Positions 3,167 through 19,247 of a stretch of DNA of 64,000 bases are shown here, one piece after another. Below the pieces are notes generated by a model. It was not told the DNA's origin and made no database searches. It saw only the letters and a program-made list of their open reading frames with translations. The stretch comes from Pirellulales bacterium (lineage in GTDB: Bacteria > Planctomycetota > Planctomycetia > Pirellulales > PALSA-1355), in assembly GCA_963733035.1 (NCBI GenBank), contig CAVTBU010000006.1, positions 832,001 to 896,000 on the forward strand, written 5' to 3'. Each line of letters begins with the position of its first letter. The stretch's first letter is position 1. The translations under genes and the position numbers were made by a program.

Positions 3167-4651
3167 CTAAAGCGTTTTCACTTCCGCCACGAGCTTGGTG
3201 AGCGAGCTCTTGGCGTCGCCGAACAACAGCGAGCACTTGGGGTCGTAGAACAGTTCGTTCTCGATGCCGGCAAACCCGGGGTTCATGCTCCGCTTCAGCA
3301 CAATCACGCTCTTGGCCTGGTCGGCGTTCAGGATCGGCATGCCGTAGATTGGGCTCGAGCGGTCGTTGCGCGCGGCTGGGTTTACCACGTCGTTGGCGCC
3401 GATGACCAGCGCCACGTCGGCCCGGGCGAATTGGTCGTTGATCTCGTCCATCTCGAGCATCTTGTCATATGGCACGTTGGCTTCGGCCAATAGCACGTTC
3501 ATGTGTCCCGGCATGCGGCCGGCCACCGGATGGATGGCGAACTTCACGTCGCCGCCCCGCTTTTCGATCAGCTCGGCCAGCTCGCGCACCTGGTGCTGGG
3601 CCTGCGCCACGGCCATCCCGTAGCCGGGCACGACGATCACTTCGCCGGCGTAGGCCAACTGCGCCGCGGCGTCCTCGACCGACAGGCTGCGCACCGTCAT
3701 GCCGGCCATCGACGCTTTGTCGCCCGACTCCACCGGCGTGCCAAACGCGCCGAACAACACGTTGGTAAACGAGCGGTTCATCGCCTTGCTCATCAAGATC
3801 GACAGGATGAAACCGCTCGCCCCGTCGAGCGCTCCGGCGATGATCAGCACGTTGTTCCCCAGTGCAAAACCGGTGGCCGAGGCCGCCAGTCCGGCGTACG
3901 AGTTCATCAGCGAAATCACGACCGGCATGTCGGCCCCGCCGATCGGTATCACCAGCAGCACGCCGACGGCCAGCCCGGCGAGCACCATCAGATAGAACAC
4001 CGTGGCGTGCGAACCCCAGTCGCTGGGGGCAAAAATCAGATACAGAAACATCAACGCCGTCACGCAGAACAGCCCGATGGTGAATTCGTTTTGGCGCGGG
4101 TACGTAATCGGCGCGCTGGGCAACAGCCCTTGCAGTTTGCCGAACGCCATCAAGCTGCCGGTGATGGTGAGCGAGCCGAACATCACTTCGAACCCCAGCG
4201 CCGCCATTTCGATGTGGCCGACGCCCTCGGCCAGGATGCGGGTTAAATAGTCGTAATGTGAAATGCCGACCAGCGTCGCGGCCAGCGCGCCAAATGCGTG
4301 CGAAATGGCGGTTCGCTGCGGAATGGCCGTCATCGGCATCCAGATGGAAATCGCCGCCCCGATGCCCGAGCCCAGAATCAAGCCCAGGATGATCCAGATA
4401 TAGCTGATAATCCGGGCGTCGATCAGTGTGCCGACCACGGCCACCAGCATGCCGATGGCGGCCAGTTGCATGCCGCGCCGCGCCTTGTCCGGAGCGGTCA
4501 GGCCGCGCAGCCCCAGAATGAACAGCACGCTGGCGGTGAGGTAGGCGCCCTGAATGAACACCTCGCGAAGGCCGTGGTTTTCGGCCGCGTGCTGCGCGGC
4601 AGTGGGGGCGGCTGCGAGGATTCTTTCGAGCACTGCGAGGGTCGTCGGCAT
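3167..4651 (-). CDS. pntB: NAD(P) transhydrogenase subunit beta
   Basis: IGGADMPVVISLMNSYAG, VPGYGMAVAQAQH, HPVAGRMPGHMNVLLAEA, GANDVVNPAA. Confidence 0.97.
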   Translation of the reverse strand: MPTTLAVLERILAAAPTAAQHAAENHGLREVFIQGAYLTASVLFILGLRGLTAPDKARRGMQLAAIGMLVAVVGTLIDARIISYIWIILGLILGSGIGAAISIWMPMTAIPQRTAISHAFGALAATLVGISHYDYLTRILAEGVGHIEMAALGFEVMFGSLTITGSLMAFGKLQGLLPSAPITYPRQNEFTIGLFCVTALMFLYLIFAPSDWGSHATVFYLMVLAGLAVGVLLVIPIGGADMPVVISLMNSYAGLAASATGFALGNNVLIIAGALDGASGFILSILMSKAMNRSFTNVLFGAFGTPVESGDKASMAGMTVRSLSVEDAAAQLAYAGEVIVVPGYGMAVAQAQHQVRELAELIEKRGGDVKFAIHPVAGRMPGHMNVLLAEANVPYDKMLEMDEINDQFARADVALVIGANDVVNPAARNDRSSPIYGMPILNADQAKSVIVLKRSMNPGFAGIENELFYDPKCSLLFGDAKSSLTKLVAEVKTL

Positions 4652-4941
4652 CAGCTTTTTCGTTCGTAGCGTTTGAACATTTTGAGCATGCGGTCGGTAA
4701 TCATGAAGCCGCCGACAACGTTGATCGTGGCCGCCGTCACGGCCACGAAGCCCAGAAAGGTGCTGTAACCGCTATGCTGGGCGCCGGCCGCCACCAGCGA
4801 ACCGACGAGCGAAATGCCGCTAATGGCGTTGGTCGCCGACATCAGCGGCGTGTGCAACAGGGCCGGCACCTTCGTGATGATCTGATAGCCGACAAACCCG
4901 GCCAGCACGAAGACATACAGCCGCAAAAACGGCAGCGTCAT
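4651..4941 (-). CDS. pntAB: NAD(P) transhydrogenase subunit alpha, part 2
   Basis: LHTPLMSATNAISG and NVVGGFMITDRMLKMF; ATG at 4941 with GAGGAG upstream; stop overlaps pntB start (TGATG). Confidence 0.93.
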   Translation of the reverse strand: MTLPFLRLYVFVLAGFVGYQIITKVPALLHTPLMSATNAISGISLVGSLVAAGAQHSGYSTFLGFVAVTAATINVVGGFMITDRMLKMFKRYERKS

Positions 4942-8982: not shown

Positions 8983-9678
8983 TCAGTCGCCGGGGCCCTT
9001 CTTGGGCCGGCCGCGGGGGCGGAAGGTGGATTCGAGGTGGAGCTGCCCGGCGGCCTTGCGCTGCCAGGCGTCGCTGCCGTAGGGGCGGCCGCGGCGGATG
9101 CTTTCGGCGATGGCTTGCACCTCGGCCTCGGTCTGCGGCCGGTTGACGCGCTCGACCCACTTGCGGCCCAGCGGCACCGGCGGCTCGGCCAGCGGGATCA
9201 CGGCCGACTCTGGGCCAACGCCCCCCGGCAGCCGCTGATGCAGGCTTCCCCAGGGATAATCCTCCGCACGCTTTACCAGCCGGGCGCGCAGCGGATTCCG
9301 TTCGACGTAGCGGAGCACCCTCAGCAGGTGCTCATCGCTGGCGACGGGAAAGGACTTGAAGCGGCCCTGGTAGACGTGCCCCATGCCGGCCGTGCCATGG
9401 TGGGCGTGCCAGCGCTGGGCGTGCGTGATCGAGAGCCAGCGGAAGAAGTCCGACACCTGCTCCCCCTGGCCCCGCATGGGCCAGACGACGAAGTGCCAAT
9501 GGTTGTTCATCACGACGTAGCCGAGAATCCGCAGCGGCACACGCTCATGGGCAGCGGCCACAATCTCCTCGAAGGCCGCGAAGTCGGCCGCTTTGCGAAA
9601 TAGTCGCAATCGGCCGTTGGCCCGATTGAGGATATGATAAACATATCCGCCCAGAAGCGTGCGAGCAGTGCGAGGCAT
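8983..9678 (-). mobile_element. HUH/Y1 tyrosine transposase (RAYT-like), copy 1
   Basis: MPRTAR, YHILNRAN, HUH in MNNHWH, YQGRFKS, RYVERNP, C-terminal RGRPKK. Confidence 0.93.
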
Positions 9679-9685
9679 GTCGCCC

Positions 9686-9714
9686 ATCGTACCGCCCACA
9701 CCGCCCGTCGGCAA
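9686..9714 (-). promoter_or_regulatory. sigma70-like promoter of RAYT copy 1, near-leaderless
   Basis: TTGCCG-N17-TACGAT, 7 nt before ATG. Confidence 0.55.
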
Positions 9715-9717
9715 GAG

Positions 9718-9746
9718 AAAAGGTTCACGTCCCCTTTAATTACTCC
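9718..9746 (-). repeat. terminal repeat of RAYT copy 1 (GGAGTAATTAAAGGGGACGTGAACCTTTT)
   Basis: Inverted match (1 mismatch in 29 nt) to 14647-14675. Confidence 0.85.
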
Positions 9747-11361: not shown

Positions 11362-11619
11362 TGACCTTCCCCACGATTCGTGGCGCGCGACAGAACTGGC
11401 ATAATGCCGGTGAAAGGAGCGTGTCATGGGTCGTCGAGTGTATTCGCGTGAGTTCAAGGTGTCGGCGGTCAAGTTGGTGAACCAGCAGGGCTATACGGTC
11501 GTGGAGGCGGCCAAGAGCCTGGGCGTGGACGCCGCCTCGATCCGCAATTGGCTGAAGAAGTTCGGGCCGGAAGTGGGCGTCAGCGCGAGCGGTGACTCGG
11601 CTTTGCGGGCGGAACTGCG
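11362..11619 (+). mobile_element. IS3-family remnant (left end + truncated orfA from 11426)
   Basis: TGACCTTCCCC left-end-like start; RRVYSREFKVSAVKLV...LGVDAASIRNW HTH; cut at 11620 by a RAYT-end repeat. Confidence 0.82.
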
Positions 11620-11681
11620 GGGGAAGAAAAAGGGACATCACTGATTGTTTGGGGAAGAAAAAGGGACATCACTGATTGTTT
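11620..11681 (+). repeat. 2 x 31 bp tandem left-end repeat GGGGAAGAAAAAGGGACATCACTGATTGTTT
   Basis: Exact direct repeat 11620-11650 / 11651-11681. Confidence 0.95.
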
Positions 11682-11715
11682 GACGGGGTTCGCTGGATAG
11701 GGTTACGATGGCGGC

Positions 11716-12057
11716 ATGCCACGCACTGCACGAGCCGTCGAAGCCGGGTTGATCTATCACGTGCTCAATCGTGGGAACGGGCGGATGCGACTGTTTCACA
11801 AGGACGAAGATTACGCCGCCTTCGAGCGAGTGCTGGGCCAGGGGCTGGAGCGGTATCCGGTCGATCTGTTGACCTACTGCATCATGCCAAACCACTGGCA
11901 TCTCGTCGTGCGGCCGCGCACCGACGAGTCGCTGGGGCGCTGGCTGGGCTGGGTCGGCGTGACCCACGTGCGGCGGCACCACGAGCACTATCATCGCCGC
12001 GGCGGCGGGCACCTGTACCAGGGCCGGTTCAAGAGCTTTCCGGTGGAAAGCGACGAG
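11716..12057 (+). pseudogene. truncated RAYT, 5' partial duplicate of copy 2
   Basis: 11680-12057 appears identical to 12153-12530; lacks the catalytic Tyr region. Confidence 0.92.
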
Positions 12058-12124
12058 GAGAAGAAAAGGGGACATCACTGATTAATTGACGGGGTTCGCT
12101 GGATAGGGAGAAGAAAAGGGGACA
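12058..12124 (+). repeat. two further left-end-anchored partial copies (50 and 17 nt)
   Basis: Both start GAGAAGAAAAGGGGACA, at 12058 and 12108. Confidence 0.9.
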
Positions 12125-12877
12125 GAGAAGAAAAGGGGACATCACTGATTAATTGACGGGGTTCGCTGGATAGGGTTACGATGGCGGCATGCCACGCACT
12201 GCACGAGCCGTCGAAGCCGGGTTGATCTATCACGTGCTCAATCGTGGGAACGGGCGGATGCGACTGTTTCACAAGGACGAAGATTACGCCGCCTTCGAGC
12301 GAGTGCTGGGCCAGGGGCTGGAGCGGTATCCGGTCGATCTGTTGACCTACTGCATCATGCCAAACCACTGGCATCTCGTCGTGCGGCCGCGCACCGACGA
12401 GTCGCTGGGGCGCTGGCTGGGCTGGGTCGGCGTGACCCACGTGCGGCGGCACCACGAGCACTATCATCGCCGCGGCGGCGGGCACCTGTACCAGGGCCGG
12501 TTCAAGAGCTTTCCGGTGGAAAGCGACGAGCACTTTCTGGCCCTTTGCCGCTACGTGGAGGCCAACCCACGGCGTGCGAAGCTGGTCGGGCGAGCCGAGC
12601 ACTGGCGTTGGAGTGGGCTGTGGCGGCGGACCTCGCGGGCGACCGACCTGCCGCTGAGCCGCTGGCCCATGCGGCGGCCGGCGAATTGGCAGGAGCGAGT
12701 GAACCGAGCCCTGCCGAGCGAGACGATGACGGCCTTAAGAGAATGCGTACAGCGCGGCCGCCCCTGGGGCGACGCGGCGTGGGTGCAAGAAACGGCCAGC
12801 CGCCTGGACCTCGGCTTCACCCTCCGCGGCCCCGGTCGCCCGAGAAATGGAAATCAGTGATGTCCCCTTTTCCTCTC
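12125..12877 (+). mobile_element. compact HUH/Y1 element with 26-bp terminal inverted repeats
   Basis: Left GAGAAGAAAAGGGGACATCACTGATT (12125-12150), right AATCAGTGATGTCCCCTTTTCCTCTC (12852-12877), 1 mismatch. Confidence 0.85.
12189..12860 (+). CDS. HUH/Y1 tyrosine transposase (RAYT-like), copy 2
   Basis: YHVLNRGN, MPNHWH, YQGRFKS, RYVEANP, GPGRPR; promoter-like TTGACG-N18-TACGAT 6 nt before ATG; stop codon lies inside the right TIR. Confidence 0.94.
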   Translation: MPRTARAVEAGLIYHVLNRGNGRMRLFHKDEDYAAFERVLGQGLERYPVDLLTYCIMPNHWHLVVRPRTDESLGRWLGWVGVTHVRRHHEHYHRRGGGHLYQGRFKSFPVESDEHFLALCRYVEANPRRAKLVGRAEHWRWSGLWRRTSRATDLPLSRWPMRRPANWQERVNRALPSETMTALRECVQRGRPWGDAAWVQETASRLDLGFTLRGPGRPRNGNQ

Positions 12878-12878
12878 C

Positions 12879-12902
12879 CAGTGATGTCCCCTTTTCCTCT
12901 CC
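12879..12902 (+). repeat. second, partial right-end copy CAGTGATGTCCCCTTTTCCTCTCC
   Basis: Tandem duplicate of 12855-12878. Confidence 0.92.
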
Positions 12903-13032
12903 AACGGGCATCAAGTACATCACACCGGGTGGGGAAGCCAACATCCCACAGAGAATCGTCGATTGGCTCCAGGACGGAAACAAAAACGGACTTGGCTACG
13001 CGATCGAAATCGTCGACTTTCCAATTCCATAG
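12903..13032 (+). pseudogene. C-terminal gene fragment, possible polymorphic toxin tip
   Basis: Open frame ...GIKYITPGGEANIPQRIVDWLQDGNKNGLGYAIEIVDFPIP*, no own start, ends 6 nt before the next gene. Confidence 0.45.
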
Positions 13033-13038
13033 GCGGCC

Positions 13039-14094
13039 ATGATGCTTGAGCGTGACGGAGGCCGCCTAGTAGTGTCAAGCCAGCTGCTCTCGGTGGAGGA
13101 GCTGCGATCGACAATCGACACGATTTGCCAGAATCGATCGGGAGCACGTTGGAGTCTATGGTGCTTTGATGGACGCTGGCGACCACCCAATGAATTAGAT
13201 GAAGTCCTGGTGTACCTCCCCCGCCGACTGGCGCCTCTCGCCTGCTTTCGCCTTTGTCAGGACGGAGGAGTCGTCTGCCATGTGAAAGTCAATCTCGATT
13301 GCCGCTATGAACCGGCGATGCTCGGGACGCTCCTGGAGTTTCTCAGGGACTTCCCACATGATCAGGTGTCGGTGGTTGGAATAAGTTGTCGAGTGGTCAC
13401 GCGTTCCGACGCAGACACGTCCGCTGGCAAGTTTCTGTTGACAGTAACTGGACGAACAACACGAAGATTGCCAAACTTTCTCGTTGGGTTGGGTCACGTG
13501 TACGGACTGAAGGACCTCGATCAGCGGCGCCGTTTTTTCGAGAGTGCTATCTCGTTGGGATTGCCGAACGACGTCGAAATCACTTGCTCACATGATGGCT
13601 TTGAACTGCGCTCGACGTCTTCGATCGAATTGAAACAACAAGGCCTTAAGAACGGCCGGAATCCTTATGGCTTCCACGTGGAATCAATCAAGAGCTTTGC
13701 CGAAGCATGGCCGCGCGCCGCCGGTATACTGACCAGCCCTCTAATCGATCACATCAGTACGGTTGGCGTGGGAGTTGTAACAGATCCCGCAGGGTATGTA
13801 AAGTTTCATGAGATACTGAACAACCTCGCCACCGGCTGGGAAGTGCAAATAGACGGTGGCTATGATCCAGATATCGATCCGTACTCAACAGATGCTTCAA
13901 GGTCGCTCGACGGCCGATTTCCAATTCTCACCTGGATGGCAGAAGAAGCTCCTGAATATCTCTACTTTGGGGCCGACATCGTTCCAATGCCTGATGGTCG
14001 CGTGCTAGAGATTCACAGTAACTGTGGCAACATCGAGATGCTACTCGGGGAAGCTGAGTCTGCAAGTGGTATCTCGTTCGCGCCAGTACAATAG
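13039..14094 (+). CDS. hypothetical protein, possible immunity protein
   Basis: 351 aa ORF, visibly lower GC than the flanks; follows a truncated C-terminal fragment. Confidence 0.65.
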   Translation: MMLERDGGRLVVSSQLLSVEELRSTIDTICQNRSGARWSLWCFDGRWRPPNELDEVLVYLPRRLAPLACFRLCQDGGVVCHVKVNLDCRYEPAMLGTLLEFLRDFPHDQVSVVGISCRVVTRSDADTSAGKFLLTVTGRTTRRLPNFLVGLGHVYGLKDLDQRRRFFESAISLGLPNDVEITCSHDGFELRSTSSIELKQQGLKNGRNPYGFHVESIKSFAEAWPRAAGILTSPLIDHISTVGVGVVTDPAGYVKFHEILNNLATGWEVQIDGGYDPDIDPYSTDASRSLDGRFPILTWMAEEAPEYLYFGADIVPMPDGRVLEIHSNCGNIEMLLGEAESASGISFAPVQ

Positions 14095-14134
14095 GGCGCC
14101 AACATAGCCTTCGAGGTCGCCTGCCAAAGCTTGC

Positions 14135-14462
14135 ATGATGCTTGAACAAACTGACAGAATCGACGTTATCGCAAAGACGCCGGATGGCAAGCTGCTTTTC
14201 GTCATTACGGACGCTGGCTTGACTCCGGATCCTGAGGAGCGTTTTCGTCTACTGCTTGCCAAGCTGAGCACCTATGTTGGCTACATCATGGGCGATGACT
14301 TTTCCCGCGAACATCCGGACAAGGCCCCCTCTGACGTCGCCATTCAGATCATGTGTGCGCGCCCCTCCCACGCCACAAATGCAGGGTCTCACCCAAATCA
14401 ATCCGTCCGGTCGCCCCGACCTGACCATTCCGGTGTGCTGCAAATTTTTCGCACAAGGTTAA
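14135..14462 (+). pseudogene. DUF6572-like protein, frameshifted
   Basis: DRIDVIAKTPDG...LLLAKLSTYVGYI pattern; removing one C near 14363 gives ...CARPPTPQMQG...FFAQG*. Confidence 0.6.
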
Positions 14463-14646
14463 GCAGCGTCATGATGCCATGTAGGAAGCCGCTGGTAGGA
14501 TGGCGAGTTGAATTGGACTCGCTCGAATACAGGAGGCTCGACATGGCTGCGTATTTCGTGGGATTGGATGTGCACTTGCCGCCTTGTACAAAAAGAATGC
14601 CACAGCCTGTTCGGCACTTCGGGAGCGTCGTCGAGCCGTGATTTTC

Positions 14647-14675
14647 GGAGAAATTAAAGGGGACGTGAACCTTTT
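14647..14675 (+). repeat. orphan RAYT-type end GGAGAAATTAAAGGGGACGTGAACCTTTT
   Basis: Inverted copy of 9718-9746. Confidence 0.85.
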
Positions 14676-14702
14676 TCTGTTTGTCGGGGCACTTACGAAT
14701 CA

Positions 14703-14888
14703 CTAGGCCGGTCGGGATCCGTTGGGCCGGGTGAGCGGCTGCTGCGGCAGGAGGACAGCGGCACGCCCGCCAGGCGTCTTGAGGACGGGCACCGATTTGC
14801 ATTCTATCGCATTCCCGCTCCGGATGATGGCTTTGACCTTTTCAAGGGCCGTAACTTTTCTCGCCGGTCCGACCCTTCTCACCCGCAT
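14703..14888 (-). CDS. small hypothetical protein (61 aa)
   Basis: ATG-started ORF lying 34 nt from the 321-bp repeat; no family recognised. Confidence 0.35.
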   Translation of the reverse strand: MRVRRVGPARKVTALEKVKAIIRSGNAIECKSVPVLKTPGGRAAVLLPQQPLTRPNGSRPA

Positions 14889-14921
14889 TTTTCTGCCGTG
14901 CGTCGCGATGGAAGCCGCTTT

Positions 14922-15242
14922 GCGACTTTGCCTCTTTCAATCGAGCCAGCCGTTGGGCTAGCCTACGGTCGGCAAATTCTGGACAGGGGACGCGCGGAGG
15001 ACCGTCATGTTTCATATCGGGCAAAATACGAAAGCTGCGGGCTACGACATGTGTCATTTATCAGGTTACAAAAGGCGAAAAGAAAAGTGCGCGCAACTTT
15101 CATCCCGAAAAAATGCCACTCGAAAATCTTGCGAATTCCGAACCGGGCCAGTTGCGAAGTTTGCAGGCCGTCAATCGCCGCTCGCGCTGCCACCGCGACA
15201 CCGAAAAACTCGCGCTGCCGAAAACATGCTTGAAATCGCGCC
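14922..15242. repeat. 321-bp dispersed intergenic repeat, copy A
   Basis: Reverse complement of 42593-42913; ~205-bp core with 3 mismatches by manual alignment. Confidence 0.93.
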
Positions 15243-15604
15243 GGCACTTCTACGACAATTTCGCTTGGCTGGACTTCGCAAACGGCCGTCGACAAAAGGT
15301 GCTGCCCCTCCCTACGTCGCCGTGGCCGGGGCGAGCGTGTCGCTGGGCAGACGGCCGGGCATGGGCGCGGGAAAGGGGCGGGAAATGCGTGTGGCGAAAG
15401 ACAAATCGGGCCGCGCTTTGACAGTGCCCGCGGGGGGCGGTAGCCTGCTACAAGGTCGATTGAGCATTCATTCGGCCGAGCATCGCGTGGCATGGCCGCT
15501 GGCGAGACTGGCAAATGCCACGACTGCCTGGTTTGATAGAAGGATTCCGTTTCCCGCGTTCCGGTTTGATCCCACCCGTTCAATCGCGTTTATCGGAGAT
15601 ACCC

Positions 15605-16174
15605 ATGAAGATTGCTGCCCTGGTCGCCTTCGGGCTGTTGGCGTTCGGCTTTGTTTCGACTGGTTCGGCCGCCGACAAGGAGAGCCCGCTCGACTTCAAG
15701 ATGAAGAGCATCGACGGCAAGGACGTCGACCTGTCGAAGTACAAGGGAGAGGTGGTGCTGATGGTCAACGTGGCCAGCAAGTGCGGCCTGACCCCGCAAT
15801 ACGAGCAGTTGGAAGCGGTTTACAGCAAGTACAAGGACAAGGGTTTCGAAGTGTTCGGTTTTCCGGCCAACGAGTTTGGCAAGCAAGAGCCTGGCACCGA
15901 TCAGGAAATCAAGGAGTTCTGCACGACGAACTTCAGCGTTGACTTCCCGATGTTCTCGAAGATCAAGGTGAAGGGGGAAGGCATCCATCCGCTCTACCAG
16001 TATTTGACCGCGCTCGACACCGAACCGGCCAAGGCGGGGGACATTTCGTGGAACTTTGAGAAGTTTCTGATCGGCCGCGACGGCAAGGTGGTGAAGCGAT
16101 TCAGCCCCCGAGTGAAGCCCGACGCCCCGGAAGTGGTCGAGGCGATCGAAGCCGAACTGAACAAGAAGTCGTAG
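15605..16174 (+). CDS. gpx: glutathione peroxidase with signal peptide
   Basis: VNVASKCGLTPQY, GFPANEFGKQEPG, WNFEKFL. Confidence 0.95.
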   Translation: MKIAALVAFGLLAFGFVSTGSAADKESPLDFKMKSIDGKDVDLSKYKGEVVLMVNVASKCGLTPQYEQLEAVYSKYKDKGFEVFGFPANEFGKQEPGTDQEIKEFCTTNFSVDFPMFSKIKVKGEGIHPLYQYLTALDTEPAKAGDISWNFEKFLIGRDGKVVKRFSPRVKPDAPEVVEAIEAELNKKS

Positions 16175-16217
16175 CACAGAACACGAGAGTCCTTCGCTAA
16201 CGAATCGAGTTTCCAAC

Positions 16218-16261
16218 AGACGGGTTTCGCCTGCACAGCAGCGGGCGGCCCGTCTTTTTTT
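16218..16261 (+). terminator. intrinsic terminator
   Basis: AGACGGG...CCCGTCT stem followed by a T-run. Confidence 0.65.
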
Positions 16262-16339
16262 GTCCCTCCCAAAGCTGAGTGATGTGGTTCGGCGATGTGA
16301 ACAGTGAAATCGGCGACATTGATAACAGGAGTCAACTTC

Positions 16340-16969
16340 ATGCATCGAGTTCTGGCGTACGTGGCGTTCGTGCTATTACTTTTCACCGCCAATGCTGCCG
16401 TGGGTGAACCGTTGGTCTTGGCAACTCTTGGTGCCTACGACGCCACGGATCAGCCGATTAGCGAGATTCCGTTGGGAGGCCAGTTCGAATTGCGCGCCTA
16501 CGTTGAGGACCTGCGCCCCGACACGTTCCCTTCGGGAATCTTCTCCGCCTTTTTGCAGGTTGCCTTCGATCCGTCGCGCATCGCCGCCATGGGGCCCTTC
16601 GAAATAGATTCGTTCTTCAATCTGATTCACGTGACACAGTTGGAATCCAACTCGCTCATCGGCGGGGGTGTCACGAGCTCGATACAACCCCCGGGGCTGG
16701 GCCAGCACCTCTTATTTACGTTGCCAATGCAGGCCACGAGCCCCGGCGTCGTGGCCTTCGATCCCTCGATTGCTCCCGGCGTGGAAAACGAGTGGTTGCT
16801 ATACGGAATTGACGTCCCGTTGACGCCGGACCAAATTCAGCTCGCGGGTACAAGGCTCAGCATCCTTCCCGAGCCATCGCAAATAGCGCTTAGCGGCATG
16901 GGGTCGCTGGCACTGGGGCTCGTCGGACGAAGCGGCCGGCGAAAGCGTCGTCGAGCGATGGTGGATTGA
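16340..16969 (+). CDS. PEP-CTERM protein, cohesin-like beta domain
   Basis: Signal peptide; C-terminal LPEPS + TM + RRKRRR. Confidence 0.8.
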   Translation: MHRVLAYVAFVLLLFTANAAVGEPLVLATLGAYDATDQPISEIPLGGQFELRAYVEDLRPDTFPSGIFSAFLQVAFDPSRIAAMGPFEIDSFFNLIHVTQLESNSLIGGGVTSSIQPPGLGQHLLFTLPMQATSPGVVAFDPSIAPGVENEWLLYGIDVPLTPDQIQLAGTRLSILPEPSQIALSGMGSLALGLVGRSGRRKRRRAMVD

Positions 16970-17412: not shown

Positions 17413-17480
17413 TGTGACGAGTCGCCAGCGGCTAAAGTCGCCCGTGGTGTAAACCGCGGCTAATTCTGGGAGTGACCTGC

Positions 17481-18329
17481 ATGGAGCGTTGCTTGTCGAG
17501 ACGAGAGTTTCTGGGTGTCAGTGCCGGTGCACTCGTTGCGACCAACTGTAGAGATTTCGCCTGCGCCGCGCCCACTCCCATGCGGTTTGGGGGCTTCCTG
17601 ATGGGGCTGCAGACGTCGTCGATGCGTCCGTTTGCGGTTGACGACGTGCTGGCCGCGATCGCCGAATTGGAACTGCCGAGCGTGGAGTTCATCGATGATC
17701 ACTTCAGCGTCAATTCATCGGATGCTGACATCGAGGCGATGCTGAGCAAGACTCGCTCCCTGGGAATTCGGGTCATGGGACACGGCGTGGATCGTTTTGG
17801 GGCCGATCACGAGGCGAATCGCCGCTGGTTCGAGTTTGCCAAGAAAGCGGGGATCAAAAACATTTCGGCCGATCCCAGCGAGGACGCCTTCGACAGCCTC
17901 GACGAGCTGTGCGAGGAGTACCAGATTCGCATTGCCATCCACAATCACGGTCCCGGTGCACGCTACGACAAGATTGTCGACGTTCTAGACCCCATTGACG
18001 GTCGCCATCGACTGATTGGTGCCTGCGCCGATTTGGGGCACTACATCCGTTCTGACGAAGACCCGGTGCGCGCTATTCGTCTCTTCGAGGGGCGATTATA
18101 CGGCATTCACCTCAAAGACTACGATCAGCGCAACGCCGAGGCCAAGGGAGTGATCATTGGCCAGGGTCATCTCGATCTGGAAGCAGTCTTCGCGGCGCTG
18201 GGCAAAGTGAATTTCCCGGCCGATGGCTGTTTCTCGTTGGAATACGAGGCCGATCGAAAGCATCCACTGCCGGGCATTCGGGCTTGTCTGACTGCGGCCA
18301 ACACCGCGGCCCAGAAAGCGGCAAACTGA
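17481..18329 (+). CDS. sugar phosphate isomerase/epimerase (TIM barrel), Tat-exported
   Basis: SRREFL; IAIHNHGP, CADLGHY, HLKD, LEYE. Confidence 0.9.
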   Translation: MERCLSRREFLGVSAGALVATNCRDFACAAPTPMRFGGFLMGLQTSSMRPFAVDDVLAAIAELELPSVEFIDDHFSVNSSDADIEAMLSKTRSLGIRVMGHGVDRFGADHEANRRWFEFAKKAGIKNISADPSEDAFDSLDELCEEYQIRIAIHNHGPGARYDKIVDVLDPIDGRHRLIGACADLGHYIRSDEDPVRAIRLFEGRLYGIHLKDYDQRNAEAKGVIIGQGHLDLEAVFAALGKVNFPADGCFSLEYEADRKHPLPGIRACLTAANTAAQKAAN

Positions 18330-18389: not shown

Positions 18390-19247
18390 ATGCACGCCAA
18401 CTGGTCGAGACGAAGTTTTTTGCAAGTCGCCGCCGGACTTATCACCACCGGGGCAACCATTCGCACTGGACGGCGGGCGTGGGCCGATGACGCTGCTGAC
18501 AGGTTCGGTGGCTTTGACGTGGGCCTGCAAAGCTACACTCTGCGGCAATTTCCCGTTGACCGAGCACTTGCCGAAATCAATAAGCTCGGGCTTCATAGCG
18601 TCGAATTGTTTGAGGCGCACTTCAGCTCAAAGTCATCGGAGGCCGACATCGCAGCCATGAAGAGCAAGACCAAAGCGCTTGGCATCAAGATGCGCGGCCA
18701 CGGCGTTAATCCGTTCACTGCCGATCACGAGGCCAACCGTCGCTGGTTCGAATTTGCGAAAAAGGCCGGGATCAAAAACATCTCGGCGGATCCCACGGAA
18801 GACGCATTTGATAGCCTCGACACGCTGTGCGAGGAGTACCAGATTCGCATCGCCATCCACAACCACGGTCCTGGAGCGCGCTACGACAAAGTGGCGGACG
18901 TGCTCAATGCCGTCGATGGCCACCACCCACTGATTGGGGCCTGCGCGGATTTGGGGCACTATATCCGCTCGGGTGAGGATCCGGTCCGCGCAATCAACCT
19001 GTTGGAAGGTCGATTATATGGCATTCACCTCAAGGACTTCGCCGAACAGAAGGCGAAAACCGAGGGAGTCATTCTGGGACAGGGACACCTCGACGTGGTG
19101 GGCGTCTTTAAGGCCTTGAAGAAGGTCAATTTCCCGGCCGACGGGTGCCTGTCGCTGGAATACGAAGAGAACCCGCAGAATCCGCTCGATGACGTGCGGG
19201 CCTGCCTGGCCGCAGCCAGTGAGGGAGCAAAGCAGGCGGCAAGTTAG
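18390..19247 (+). CDS. sugar phosphate isomerase/epimerase (TIM barrel), Tat-exported paralog
   Basis: SRRSFL; same motifs as the upstream gene. Confidence 0.92.
   Translation: MHANWSRRSFLQVAAGLITTGATIRTGRRAWADDAADRFGGFDVGLQSYTLRQFPVDRALAEINKLGLHSVELFEAHFSSKSSEADIAAMKSKTKALGIKMRGHGVNPFTADHEANRRWFEFAKKAGIKNISADPTEDAFDSLDTLCEEYQIRIAIHNHGPGARYDKVADVLNAVDGHHPLIGACADLGHYIRSGEDPVRAINLLEGRLYGIHLKDFAEQKAKTEGVILGQGHLDVVGVFKALKKVNFPADGCLSLEYEENPQNPLDDVRACLAAASEGAKQAAS

Follow-up and report, generated by a model that had tools for sequence, protein, structure and literature searches.

In a 64,000-nucleotide (nt) stretch of contig CAVTBU010000006.1 from a Pirellulales bacterium, hereafter called the window and the frame for all window coordinates, positions 11620-12902 hold an intact gene for a Y1/HUH transposase within inverted repeats of 26-27 nt, flanked by partial copies of the element's own ends. 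Such stacks of partial copies, anchored at the outer tip of the element, are real, widespread and a trait of the transposase family. From left to right, the locus consists of units of 31, 407, 50 and 17 nt, the full element and a further unit of 24 nt, all directly abutting. The four left units share a common start, the left tip of the element, and differ in their inner stops; the right unit ends with the right tip. A preliminary description of this DNA had reported four left-anchored partial copies (31, about 407, 50 and 17 nt) and a 24-nt right-anchored one, and we recovered all five exactly where it had placed them. The features of the locus are the following.

11620-11650, + strand: partial copy A31, covering nt 1-31 of the variant-A left end, identical to 11651-11681
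11651-12057, + strand: partial copy A407, made up of the variant-A left end, a promoter-like site at 11680-11709 and, at 11716-12057, codons 1-114 of the gene
12058-12107, + strand: partial copy B50, covering nt 1-50 of the variant-B left end, 100% identical to 12125-12175
12108-12124, + strand: partial copy B17, covering nt 1-17 of the left end and stopping right after GGGGACA
12125-12878, + strand: full element, with variant-B left tip, gene and right repeat
12125-12150, + strand: left terminal inverted repeat of 26 nt, with tip GAGAAGAAAA and core GGGGACATCACTGATT
12189-12860, + strand: Y1/HUH gene, intact, encoding 223 amino acids, with its stop codon inside the right repeat
12852-12878, + strand: right terminal inverted repeat, of which the arm 12852-12877 pairs with the left arm
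12879-12902, + strand: partial copy R24, the terminal 24 nt of the right end from CAGTG on, matching at 24 of 24 positions

The two 26-nt arms of the inverted repeat (12125-12150 and 12852-12877) are 96% complementary. The core GGGACATCACTGATT matches five times in the 64-kb window, always at this locus, with 0.09 matches expected and none of 100 shuffles reaching five, and the tip motif matches seven times, again only at the locus (0.61 expected; 0 of 100 shuffles reach seven). Searching with core and tip motif, we found no extra copies of the element ends elsewhere in the window. The core of the left repeat is also kept in 30 related loci. As the preliminary description had noticed, the left ends fall into two variants, A on the 31- and 407-nt units and B on the 50- and 17-nt units and the full copy. 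A407 and the full copy are identical over 378 nt (11680-12057) and differ by four mismatches within 11652-11679 and at the boundary base 11651; by tblastn, A407 encodes residues 1-114 of the protein at 100%. The 50-, 17- and 24-nt units are each identical to the end that they adjoin, and R24 has a base specific to the right end, showing that it was copied from there.

When each end was folded alone, no hairpin was found at the ends of the element in the window (z 0.64 to -0.33). Just inside the left repeat and 5' of the gene lies a promoter-like site (12153-12182; TTGACG, 18 nt, TACGAT), which is a consensus match only. Two such sites were found where 0.4 were expected, the second being the copy at 11680-11709 in A407. 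The reading frame that begins in A407 (11716-12081, 121 amino acids) keeps the HuH motif and lacks the catalytic Tyr122. With its promoter-like site and open frame, A407 could thus yield a truncated protein, which would be catalytically dead because Tyr122 is absent.

Stacks of this kind recur throughout the family. A genome scan restricted to one genome per species, with the window's own genome outside the set, gave 233 confirmed relatives, from which 79 loci were fetched (designated below by L and a number). We counted as a stack any contiguous head-to-tail copies that start at the tip, using a tip-scanning parse and control positions inside the same genes. In the close subfamily, comprising 30 loci and the window, stacks with a unit of at least 9 nt occurred at 15 of 58 ends, and none of 232 control positions scored. 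At the 49 distant loci they occurred at 25 of 93 ends, with 0 of 93 controls scoring; 26 ends had scored in this set, of which the right side of L048 is a run of N and was dropped. Homologous loci, on whose end-anchored copies the preliminary description had let its case depend, do therefore carry stacks, at 12 of the 31 close and 20 of the 49 distant loci.

All units start at one point, 8-13 nt before the GGGG core, and their ends vary, giving lengths from 10 to 407 nt. Most are short, with 23 of 28 units in the close set and 58 of 72 overall measuring at most 25 nt. In L027, three units (18, 30 and 20 nt) lie on the left and two (24 and 15 nt) on the right, and L042 likewise has stacks on both sides. 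Longer units occur in L006 (82-85 nt, including the gene start), L047 (41 and 71 nt) and L063 (108 nt). On the left side of L034 (about 240 nt upstream of the tip, which lies at gene start -82), eleven stacked units, 17, 18 or 39 nt long, are arranged as a higher-order repeat, suggesting that blocks of units were amplified after they had formed. Stacks were found at 27 of 77 left ends versus 13 of 74 right ends (close set, 11/29 versus 4/29; distant set, 16/48 versus 9/45).

The inner stops fall repeatedly at the same places. One recurrent break point lies inside the A/G run, and another just after GGGGWSA, where the 17-nt unit of the window and units in L027, L034, L038, L039, L042 and L067 end. 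Breaks after CACTG are found in the 24-nt unit of the window, in L004 (twice) and L027, and on the left side in L006 and L026, while breaks about 20 nt past the start of the core are shared by the 31-nt unit of the window, L001 and L027. Junction microhomology was scored for 70 units in a stricter parse, which includes two units seemingly unrelated to the repeat (right side of L028, 15 nt; right side of L048, 38 nt). It amounted to 0 nt in 34 units, 1 nt in 27, 2 nt in six, 3 nt in two and 10 nt in one, and the mean overlap was 0.79 nt versus 0.36 nt at random break points.

The tip from which all units start is a mobile boundary, as copies of the element within the same genome (L016, L027) share sequence only up to this point. 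By eye, no target-site duplication was seen at 27 loci, where tip positions are accurate to about 2 nt. The five tips in the window are not preceded by a common 4-nt motif, so that there is no target word of the IS608 type. Inverted repeats flank the gene in 69 of the 79 loci (best ungapped repeat score of at least 13 between 250 nt upstream and 200 nt downstream); by an arithmetic estimate made without shuffling, 13 exact matches would arise by chance in less than 1 in 1000 such comparisons. The sequence AAAAGGGGACATCACTGAT is common to the close relatives. Distant relatives (42-58% identity; from Nitrospira, Patescibacteria, proteobacteria and others) have hairpin ends of the type AAAAGGTGTCAGGAACCTTTT or GAAAAGGGGTCAGACCCCTTTTC.

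Several loci show further arrangements of the arms. In L025, the gene lies between perfect palindromes with a 21-bp stem (3927-3971 and 4680-4724; z -9.2), each of which is a left and a right arm fused, and in L023 a complete arm pair stands on each side of the gene (3791-3950 and 4672-4776). To judge by its arrangement, this layout resembles a canonical REPIN-RAYT-REPIN locus and would link the inverted-repeat and the hairpin type. Arm pairs without a gene, 44-200 nt apart, occur in L007 (2411-2538, 2787-2914 and 3550-3677), L008 (2438-2609 and 5341-5433), L014 (6117-6160), L016 (6088-6285) and L028 (8398-8496); in appearance, these resemble miniature non-autonomous elements or REPINs of the TIRYT family, to which we assign the transposase below. 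Solitary fragments anchored at the right end, with no gene adjacent, lie 0.5-1 kb upstream of the full element in L004 (2888-2949, 62 nt) and L001 (456-495, 41 nt). They are 90% identical to the local right end, and the L004 fragment is accompanied by two 23-nt units that extend to 2995.

The preliminary description had called the gene RAYT-like and placed it within 26-bp terminal inverted repeats, and protein analysis bears this out. The product of 12189-12860 matches Pfam Y1_Tnp (E 8e-13); no other Pfam domain was detected at E values up to 0.01, including any helix-turn-helix (HTH) domain in the C-terminal part, and the Pfam scan found no helicase domain. The NCBIfam model NF047646 (REP_Tyr_transpos) gave 61.6 bits, below its cut-off of 80. 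The HuH motif is N59-H60-W61-H62, the catalytic Tyr122 lies in YVEANP, and the C-terminal extension is helical and about 95 residues long. In an alignment of 26 sequences, H60, H62, Y101, Q102, Y122 and N126 are invariant. A single-sequence search of solved structures returned only noise; with an alignment profile, Escherichia coli TnpA-REP (4er8) emerged as the best solved relative (E 8.8e-8), followed by the ISDra2 transposase. The AlphaFold model (pLDDT 90.3), in which residues 143-212 form a confident helical C-terminal part, also has 4er8 as its closest fold (E 1.5e-6), then the transposases of ISDra2, IS200 and IS608, and its top fold matches are Y1 enzymes only.

A database search with the protein returned 7337 relatives at E values up to 0.001, the best with 88% identity and many on contigs of about 1 kb; the names attached to them are those of Planctomycetota and Pirellulales. 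The right repeat (12852-12860) encodes the last two residues of the protein, NQ, and the stop codon, and many relatives likewise end in NQ, which suggests that the C-terminus of the protein and the repeat constrain each other.

The DNA on either side of the stack, and a second gene of the same family in the window, comprise the following features.

11426-11619, + strand: truncated IS3-type orfA, the N-terminus of an HTH transposase (Pfam HTH_Tnp_1, E 8e-13)
12904-13032: right-flank open reading frame (ORF) tail of 42 amino acids, with no more than a sub-threshold Pfam match
8983-9714, - strand: second TIRYT paralogue, 243 amino acids when counted from its first start codon, with 46% identity to the main protein

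The orfA frame continues into the first partial copy and stops at 11644; its matches to the NCBIfam models transpos_IS3 and IS66 TnpA are weak and below cut-off. The right flank (12903-14094) contains the 42-amino-acid ORF tail, for which no homologues were found among longer proteins, and a 351-amino-acid ORF without a family, and is followed by a DUF6572 ORF (14135-14641). Five ORFs were scanned from 13039 to 16969, none of them with a Pfam match of the integrase type (rve). Since no integrase ORF follows downstream and the right-flank ORFs have no or unrelated Pfam matches, the flanks do not look like the two halves of one target, and the stack appears to sit at a junction of unrelated DNA.

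The second paralogue has a AAAGGGGACGTGAACCTTT motif, which contains GGGGAC, upstream at 9719-9737 on the minus strand. A right-end repeat partner was not found for it, and on its 3' side it adjoins an ORF fragment (8791 onward) without a Pfam match. The remaining window consists of ordinary chromosomal genes. Among them, two adjacent ORFs of 285 amino acids on the plus strand (17472-18329 and 18390-19247) both belong to AP_endonuc_2 (xylose isomerase-like TIM barrel) and may represent a tandem gene duplication.

How the stacks arise can be read in more than one way. In our judgement, the chances are about even that they are scars left by the enzyme nicking the outer tip and then joining a growing 3'-OH to the tyrosine-linked tip. 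The enzyme would first recognise the purine-rich strand of the repeat, which is the top one at the left end of the element and the bottom one at the right. Its nick would then fall precisely on the outer tip, some 10-12 nt 5' of the GGGG core, leaving a 3'-OH on the flank and the tyrosine on the 5' tip. The tip would next be re-copied inward, over a variable length, by a growing 3' end. This end could come from the flank, with a host polymerase extending its 3'-OH, or from a replication fork that has only just moved beyond the tip, as its nascent leading strand. Finally, this 3'-OH would attack the phosphotyrosine and reseal the strand, giving the order flank-[tip..x]-[tip..whole element]. Repeated rounds would stack units outward, and slippage could then amplify short units. 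In the fork version, the passing fork would expose the repeat as single-stranded DNA, which would account for the many units that stop shortly beyond the recognition motif. If the 3' end were captured from another copy of the element, two loci would become fused, which would explain variant-A copies next to a variant-B element between unrelated flanks. We speculate that a variant-B tip joined to a nascent end inside a variant-A copy explains both the variants and the flanks in one step.

Such a join has a precedent among HUH enzymes. According to the text of PMC8266576, the 3'-OH of an added oligonucleotide resolves the 5'-phosphotyrosine link of TnpA-REP, and its authors propose that a 3'-OH may prime replication or perform strand transfer. 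The preliminary description had likewise arrived at a nick at a fixed end followed by copying of variable length, and had judged this to be unlike peel-and-paste transposition. The first part stands as the best-supported reading, with the reservation that self-insertion of the element and subsequent recombination lead to the same arrangement; the second part was too strong, as the resolution of a 5'-phosphotyrosine by any 3'-OH is, as PMC8266576 describes it, known Y1 chemistry. The junctions with 0-1 nt of microhomology (61 of 70) argue for an enzymatic join at a defined site, and the shortness of most units in the close set fits short-lived copying.

Several observations weigh against this reading. 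The body of A407 is identical to that of the full copy and its tip differs at 4 of about 29 positions, so that A407 cannot be a plain re-copy of its present neighbour; the reading must also assume that the tip changed afterwards or that two copies were joined. The recurrent break points could be second cleavage sites or target sites instead of polymerase stops. The roughly twofold bias of stacks towards the left end is not predicted if the enzyme acts symmetrically on inverted repeats. Moreover, Y1 enzymes cut single-stranded DNA, but priming from a nick needs a template strand, and the ends in the window do not fold into hairpins able to extrude from the duplex. Finally, 1-nt overlaps are somewhat commoner than at random break points.

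The strongest competitor, which we consider unlikely and yet a serious contender, requires no new chemistry. A new element would insert in the same orientation at position x of a resident copy, giving prefix(1..x)-new element-remainder, and recombination between the long direct repeats would then delete one body, leaving prefix(1..x)-whole element. The 24-nt unit would stem from mirror-image events at the right end. Self-insertion directly accounts for outer variant-A units and an inner variant-B element with identical bodies, and the recurrent break points could be preferred target sites. Short derivatives and palindromic end-to-end pairs do lie beside or near resident copies in L007, L008, L014, L023 and L025; the solitary fragments of L004 and L001 fit either this model or nick-and-copy. 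Yet tblastn found no unresolved nest and no remnant of the C-terminal part of the gene in 80 sequences (the 79 loci and the window). In an element of about 750 nt, the observed preponderance of short units (58 of 72 at most 25 nt long) means that insertion would need to be directed nearly exclusively at the first 25 nt, and the tips are not preceded by a shared target word. The eleven units of L034 would need many rounds of insertion and deletion, unless they were amplified by later slippage. In the window, the remainders of both the variant-A element and the IS3 gene are missing, so that an extra deletion ending exactly at the right tip would be needed.

Replication slippage or unequal crossing-over at purine-rich, repeat-prone ends, without any part for the enzyme, is an improbable origin. 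The tips do consist of A- and G-runs, many short units break inside the AAAAGGGG run, the pattern of 17-, 18- and 39-nt units in L034 looks like block amplification, and the surplus of 1-nt overlaps, though slight, points in the same direction. Against such an origin, junction microhomology reaches 3 nt or more at only 3 of 70 junctions, and units of 50-407 nt occur without flanking direct repeats. Across 40 real stacks, found in diverse phyla, the units begin at this one point, the mobile boundary, in spite of differing tip sequences, and none of 325 control positions inside genes scored. Mis-joining of reads from several element copies is very improbable: relatives are frequently found on contigs of about 1 kb, indicating that such elements break assemblies, but the same architecture in many independent assemblies, including contigs of 0.2-7 Mb (L006, L026, L027, L034), makes an assembly artefact unlikely, and units abut base for base with break points common to different genomes.

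Nicking at the tip and joining to a growing 3' end, if this is indeed how the stacks form, has consequences for the family as a whole. With considerable hesitation, we suggest that TIRYTs may be nick-and-capture enzymes that act at their own boundaries, joining the tyrosine-linked tip to the nearest growing 3' end, which would usually be the re-copied first 10-25 nt. The stacks predict a cut site 10-12 nt 5' of the GGGG core on the purine-rich strand, a 5'-linked enzyme and short re-copied tips as a by-product. They would offer a simple genomic read-out of past enzyme activity, i.e., a natural footprint, in which tip-anchored stutters preserve the cleavage site and its polarity in the genome. 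For an enzyme of TnpA-Y1 subclass 2.1, this would be the first natural record of cut position and strand; in the text of PMC3733652 and PMC6006769, which leaves the function open, we found no experiments on this subclass, Di Nocera and colleagues proposing in vitro assays only. Distant copies could also become fused, with the intervening DNA deleted or rearranged, as the variant-A/variant-B junction between unrelated flanks would suggest. If the join can capture foreign 3' ends, such elements would give rise to deletions and truncated genes in Planctomycetota and in other phyla.

Compared with known systems, the element is almost certainly a TIRtron encoding a TIRYT, that is, a transposase of TnpA-Y1 subclass 2.1 or RAYT group 1. 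It is an ordinary member of a described family. The preliminary description had suspected that terminal inverted repeats on RAYT-like subfamilies might already be on record, and they are: the TIRYT/TIRtron class is described in PMC3733652 and PMC6006769, the only two papers in which a full-text literature search found the term TIRYT, so that inverted repeats on a Y1 transposase are not new. In the text of the former (Di Nocera 2013), TIRtrons are RAYT-like TIRYT genes within long inverted repeats that share GGGGWSAS and whose copies are 'single, dimeric or grouped'. The element of the window agrees with this in its RAYT-like Y1/HUH protein, which is longer than RAYTs and has a C-terminal extension, in long terminal inverted repeats in place of REP hairpins, in the overlap of the repeat with the 3' end of the gene, and in repeat copies that are again single, paired or grouped. 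The window sequence GGGGACAT fits GGGGWSAS at seven of eight positions, with T for S, and distant relatives have GGGGTCAG or GGTGTCAG. What differs is that partial copies including the gene start are not described in the text of that paper. More broadly, in the RAYT, REPIN and TIRYT literature, as far as its running text extends (figures and supplements lying outside this scope), we found no description of partial copies with a fixed tip and variable length. The new part is thus the stack of tip-anchored partial copies, the Y1 gene flanked by inverted repeats being already known.

In the classification of Quentin 2018 (text of PMC6006769), TIRYT corresponds to TnpA-Y1 subclass 2.1, which is matched to Bertels' RAYT group 1 and is the second largest TnpA-Y1 subclass, present in 14.9% of strains. 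Its members have a median length of 238 amino acids and a C-terminal extension with helix-turn-helix similarity (Bac_DnaA_C, HTH_23, HTH_28). The protein of the window has 223 amino acids and a helical C-terminal part (143-212) in which no HTH Pfam domain was detected. For the motifs, the same text gives NHVH or NH[YF]H as HuH, W[EQ] or FQ, and Y[IV]HLNP or YIELNP, with Y---NP as the signature at the catalytic tyrosine of class 2 TnpA-Y1. The window protein has NHWH, YQ and YVEANP; it fits the pattern N-H-aromatic-H, aromatic-Q and Y-[IV]-x-x-N-P, whereas the exact residues differ.

REPtrons (TnpA-REP 4er8; PMC3116915, PMC8266576) share with the element the closest solved structure, the Y---NP motif and clusters of repeats by the gene. 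The distant relatives L038, L070 and L025 moreover have REP-like hairpin ends, with the tip a few nt 5' of the foot of the hairpin, and the text of PMC8266576 states that TnpA-REP cuts 'in proximity, 5' or 3' of the REP structure'. In contrast to REPtrons and canonical RAYTs (groups 2 and 3), the window has no GTAG tag and no hairpin at the ends, and the NF047646 score of its protein (61.6 bits against 80) remains below the cut-off, which sets the element apart from that group. It also differs from REPtrons in that it interrupts genes and varies in place between genomes, like an insertion sequence.

With the IS200/IS605 elements (IS608, ISDra2), the element has in common the fold, the chemistry of a HuH motif and a single tyrosine, and the lack of an evident target-site duplication. 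In that family, the hairpins are subterminal, inverted repeats are lacking, the motif is Y---Q and a fixed target word abuts the left end; the inverted repeats, the Y---NP motif, the lack of hairpins and the differing bases before the five tips therefore place the element of the window outside this group. Hairpin ends of either the IS200/IS605 or the REP kind were rejected for the subfamily of the window, in which the ends do not fold, whereas distant relatives do have them.

One-ended transposition of IS91 has a fixed start and a variable end. IS91 and Helitron transposases carry two tyrosines, and Helitrons also a helicase. With 223 amino acids, a Y1 fold and no helicase domain, the protein of the window does not belong among these enzymes. 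The likeness lies in the HUH nick at one end, the variable stop of copying and the one shared end; for Helraiser, the text of PMC4778049 reports that the left terminus is required, that the right one is dispensable and that truncations are observed. In IS91 and Helitrons, however, truncated copies land at new sites and are not piled onto the tip of the donor. If TIRYTs do nick their own tips and capture the nearest growing 3' end, they would represent a mode of action intermediate between peel-and-paste transposition and rolling-circle replication.

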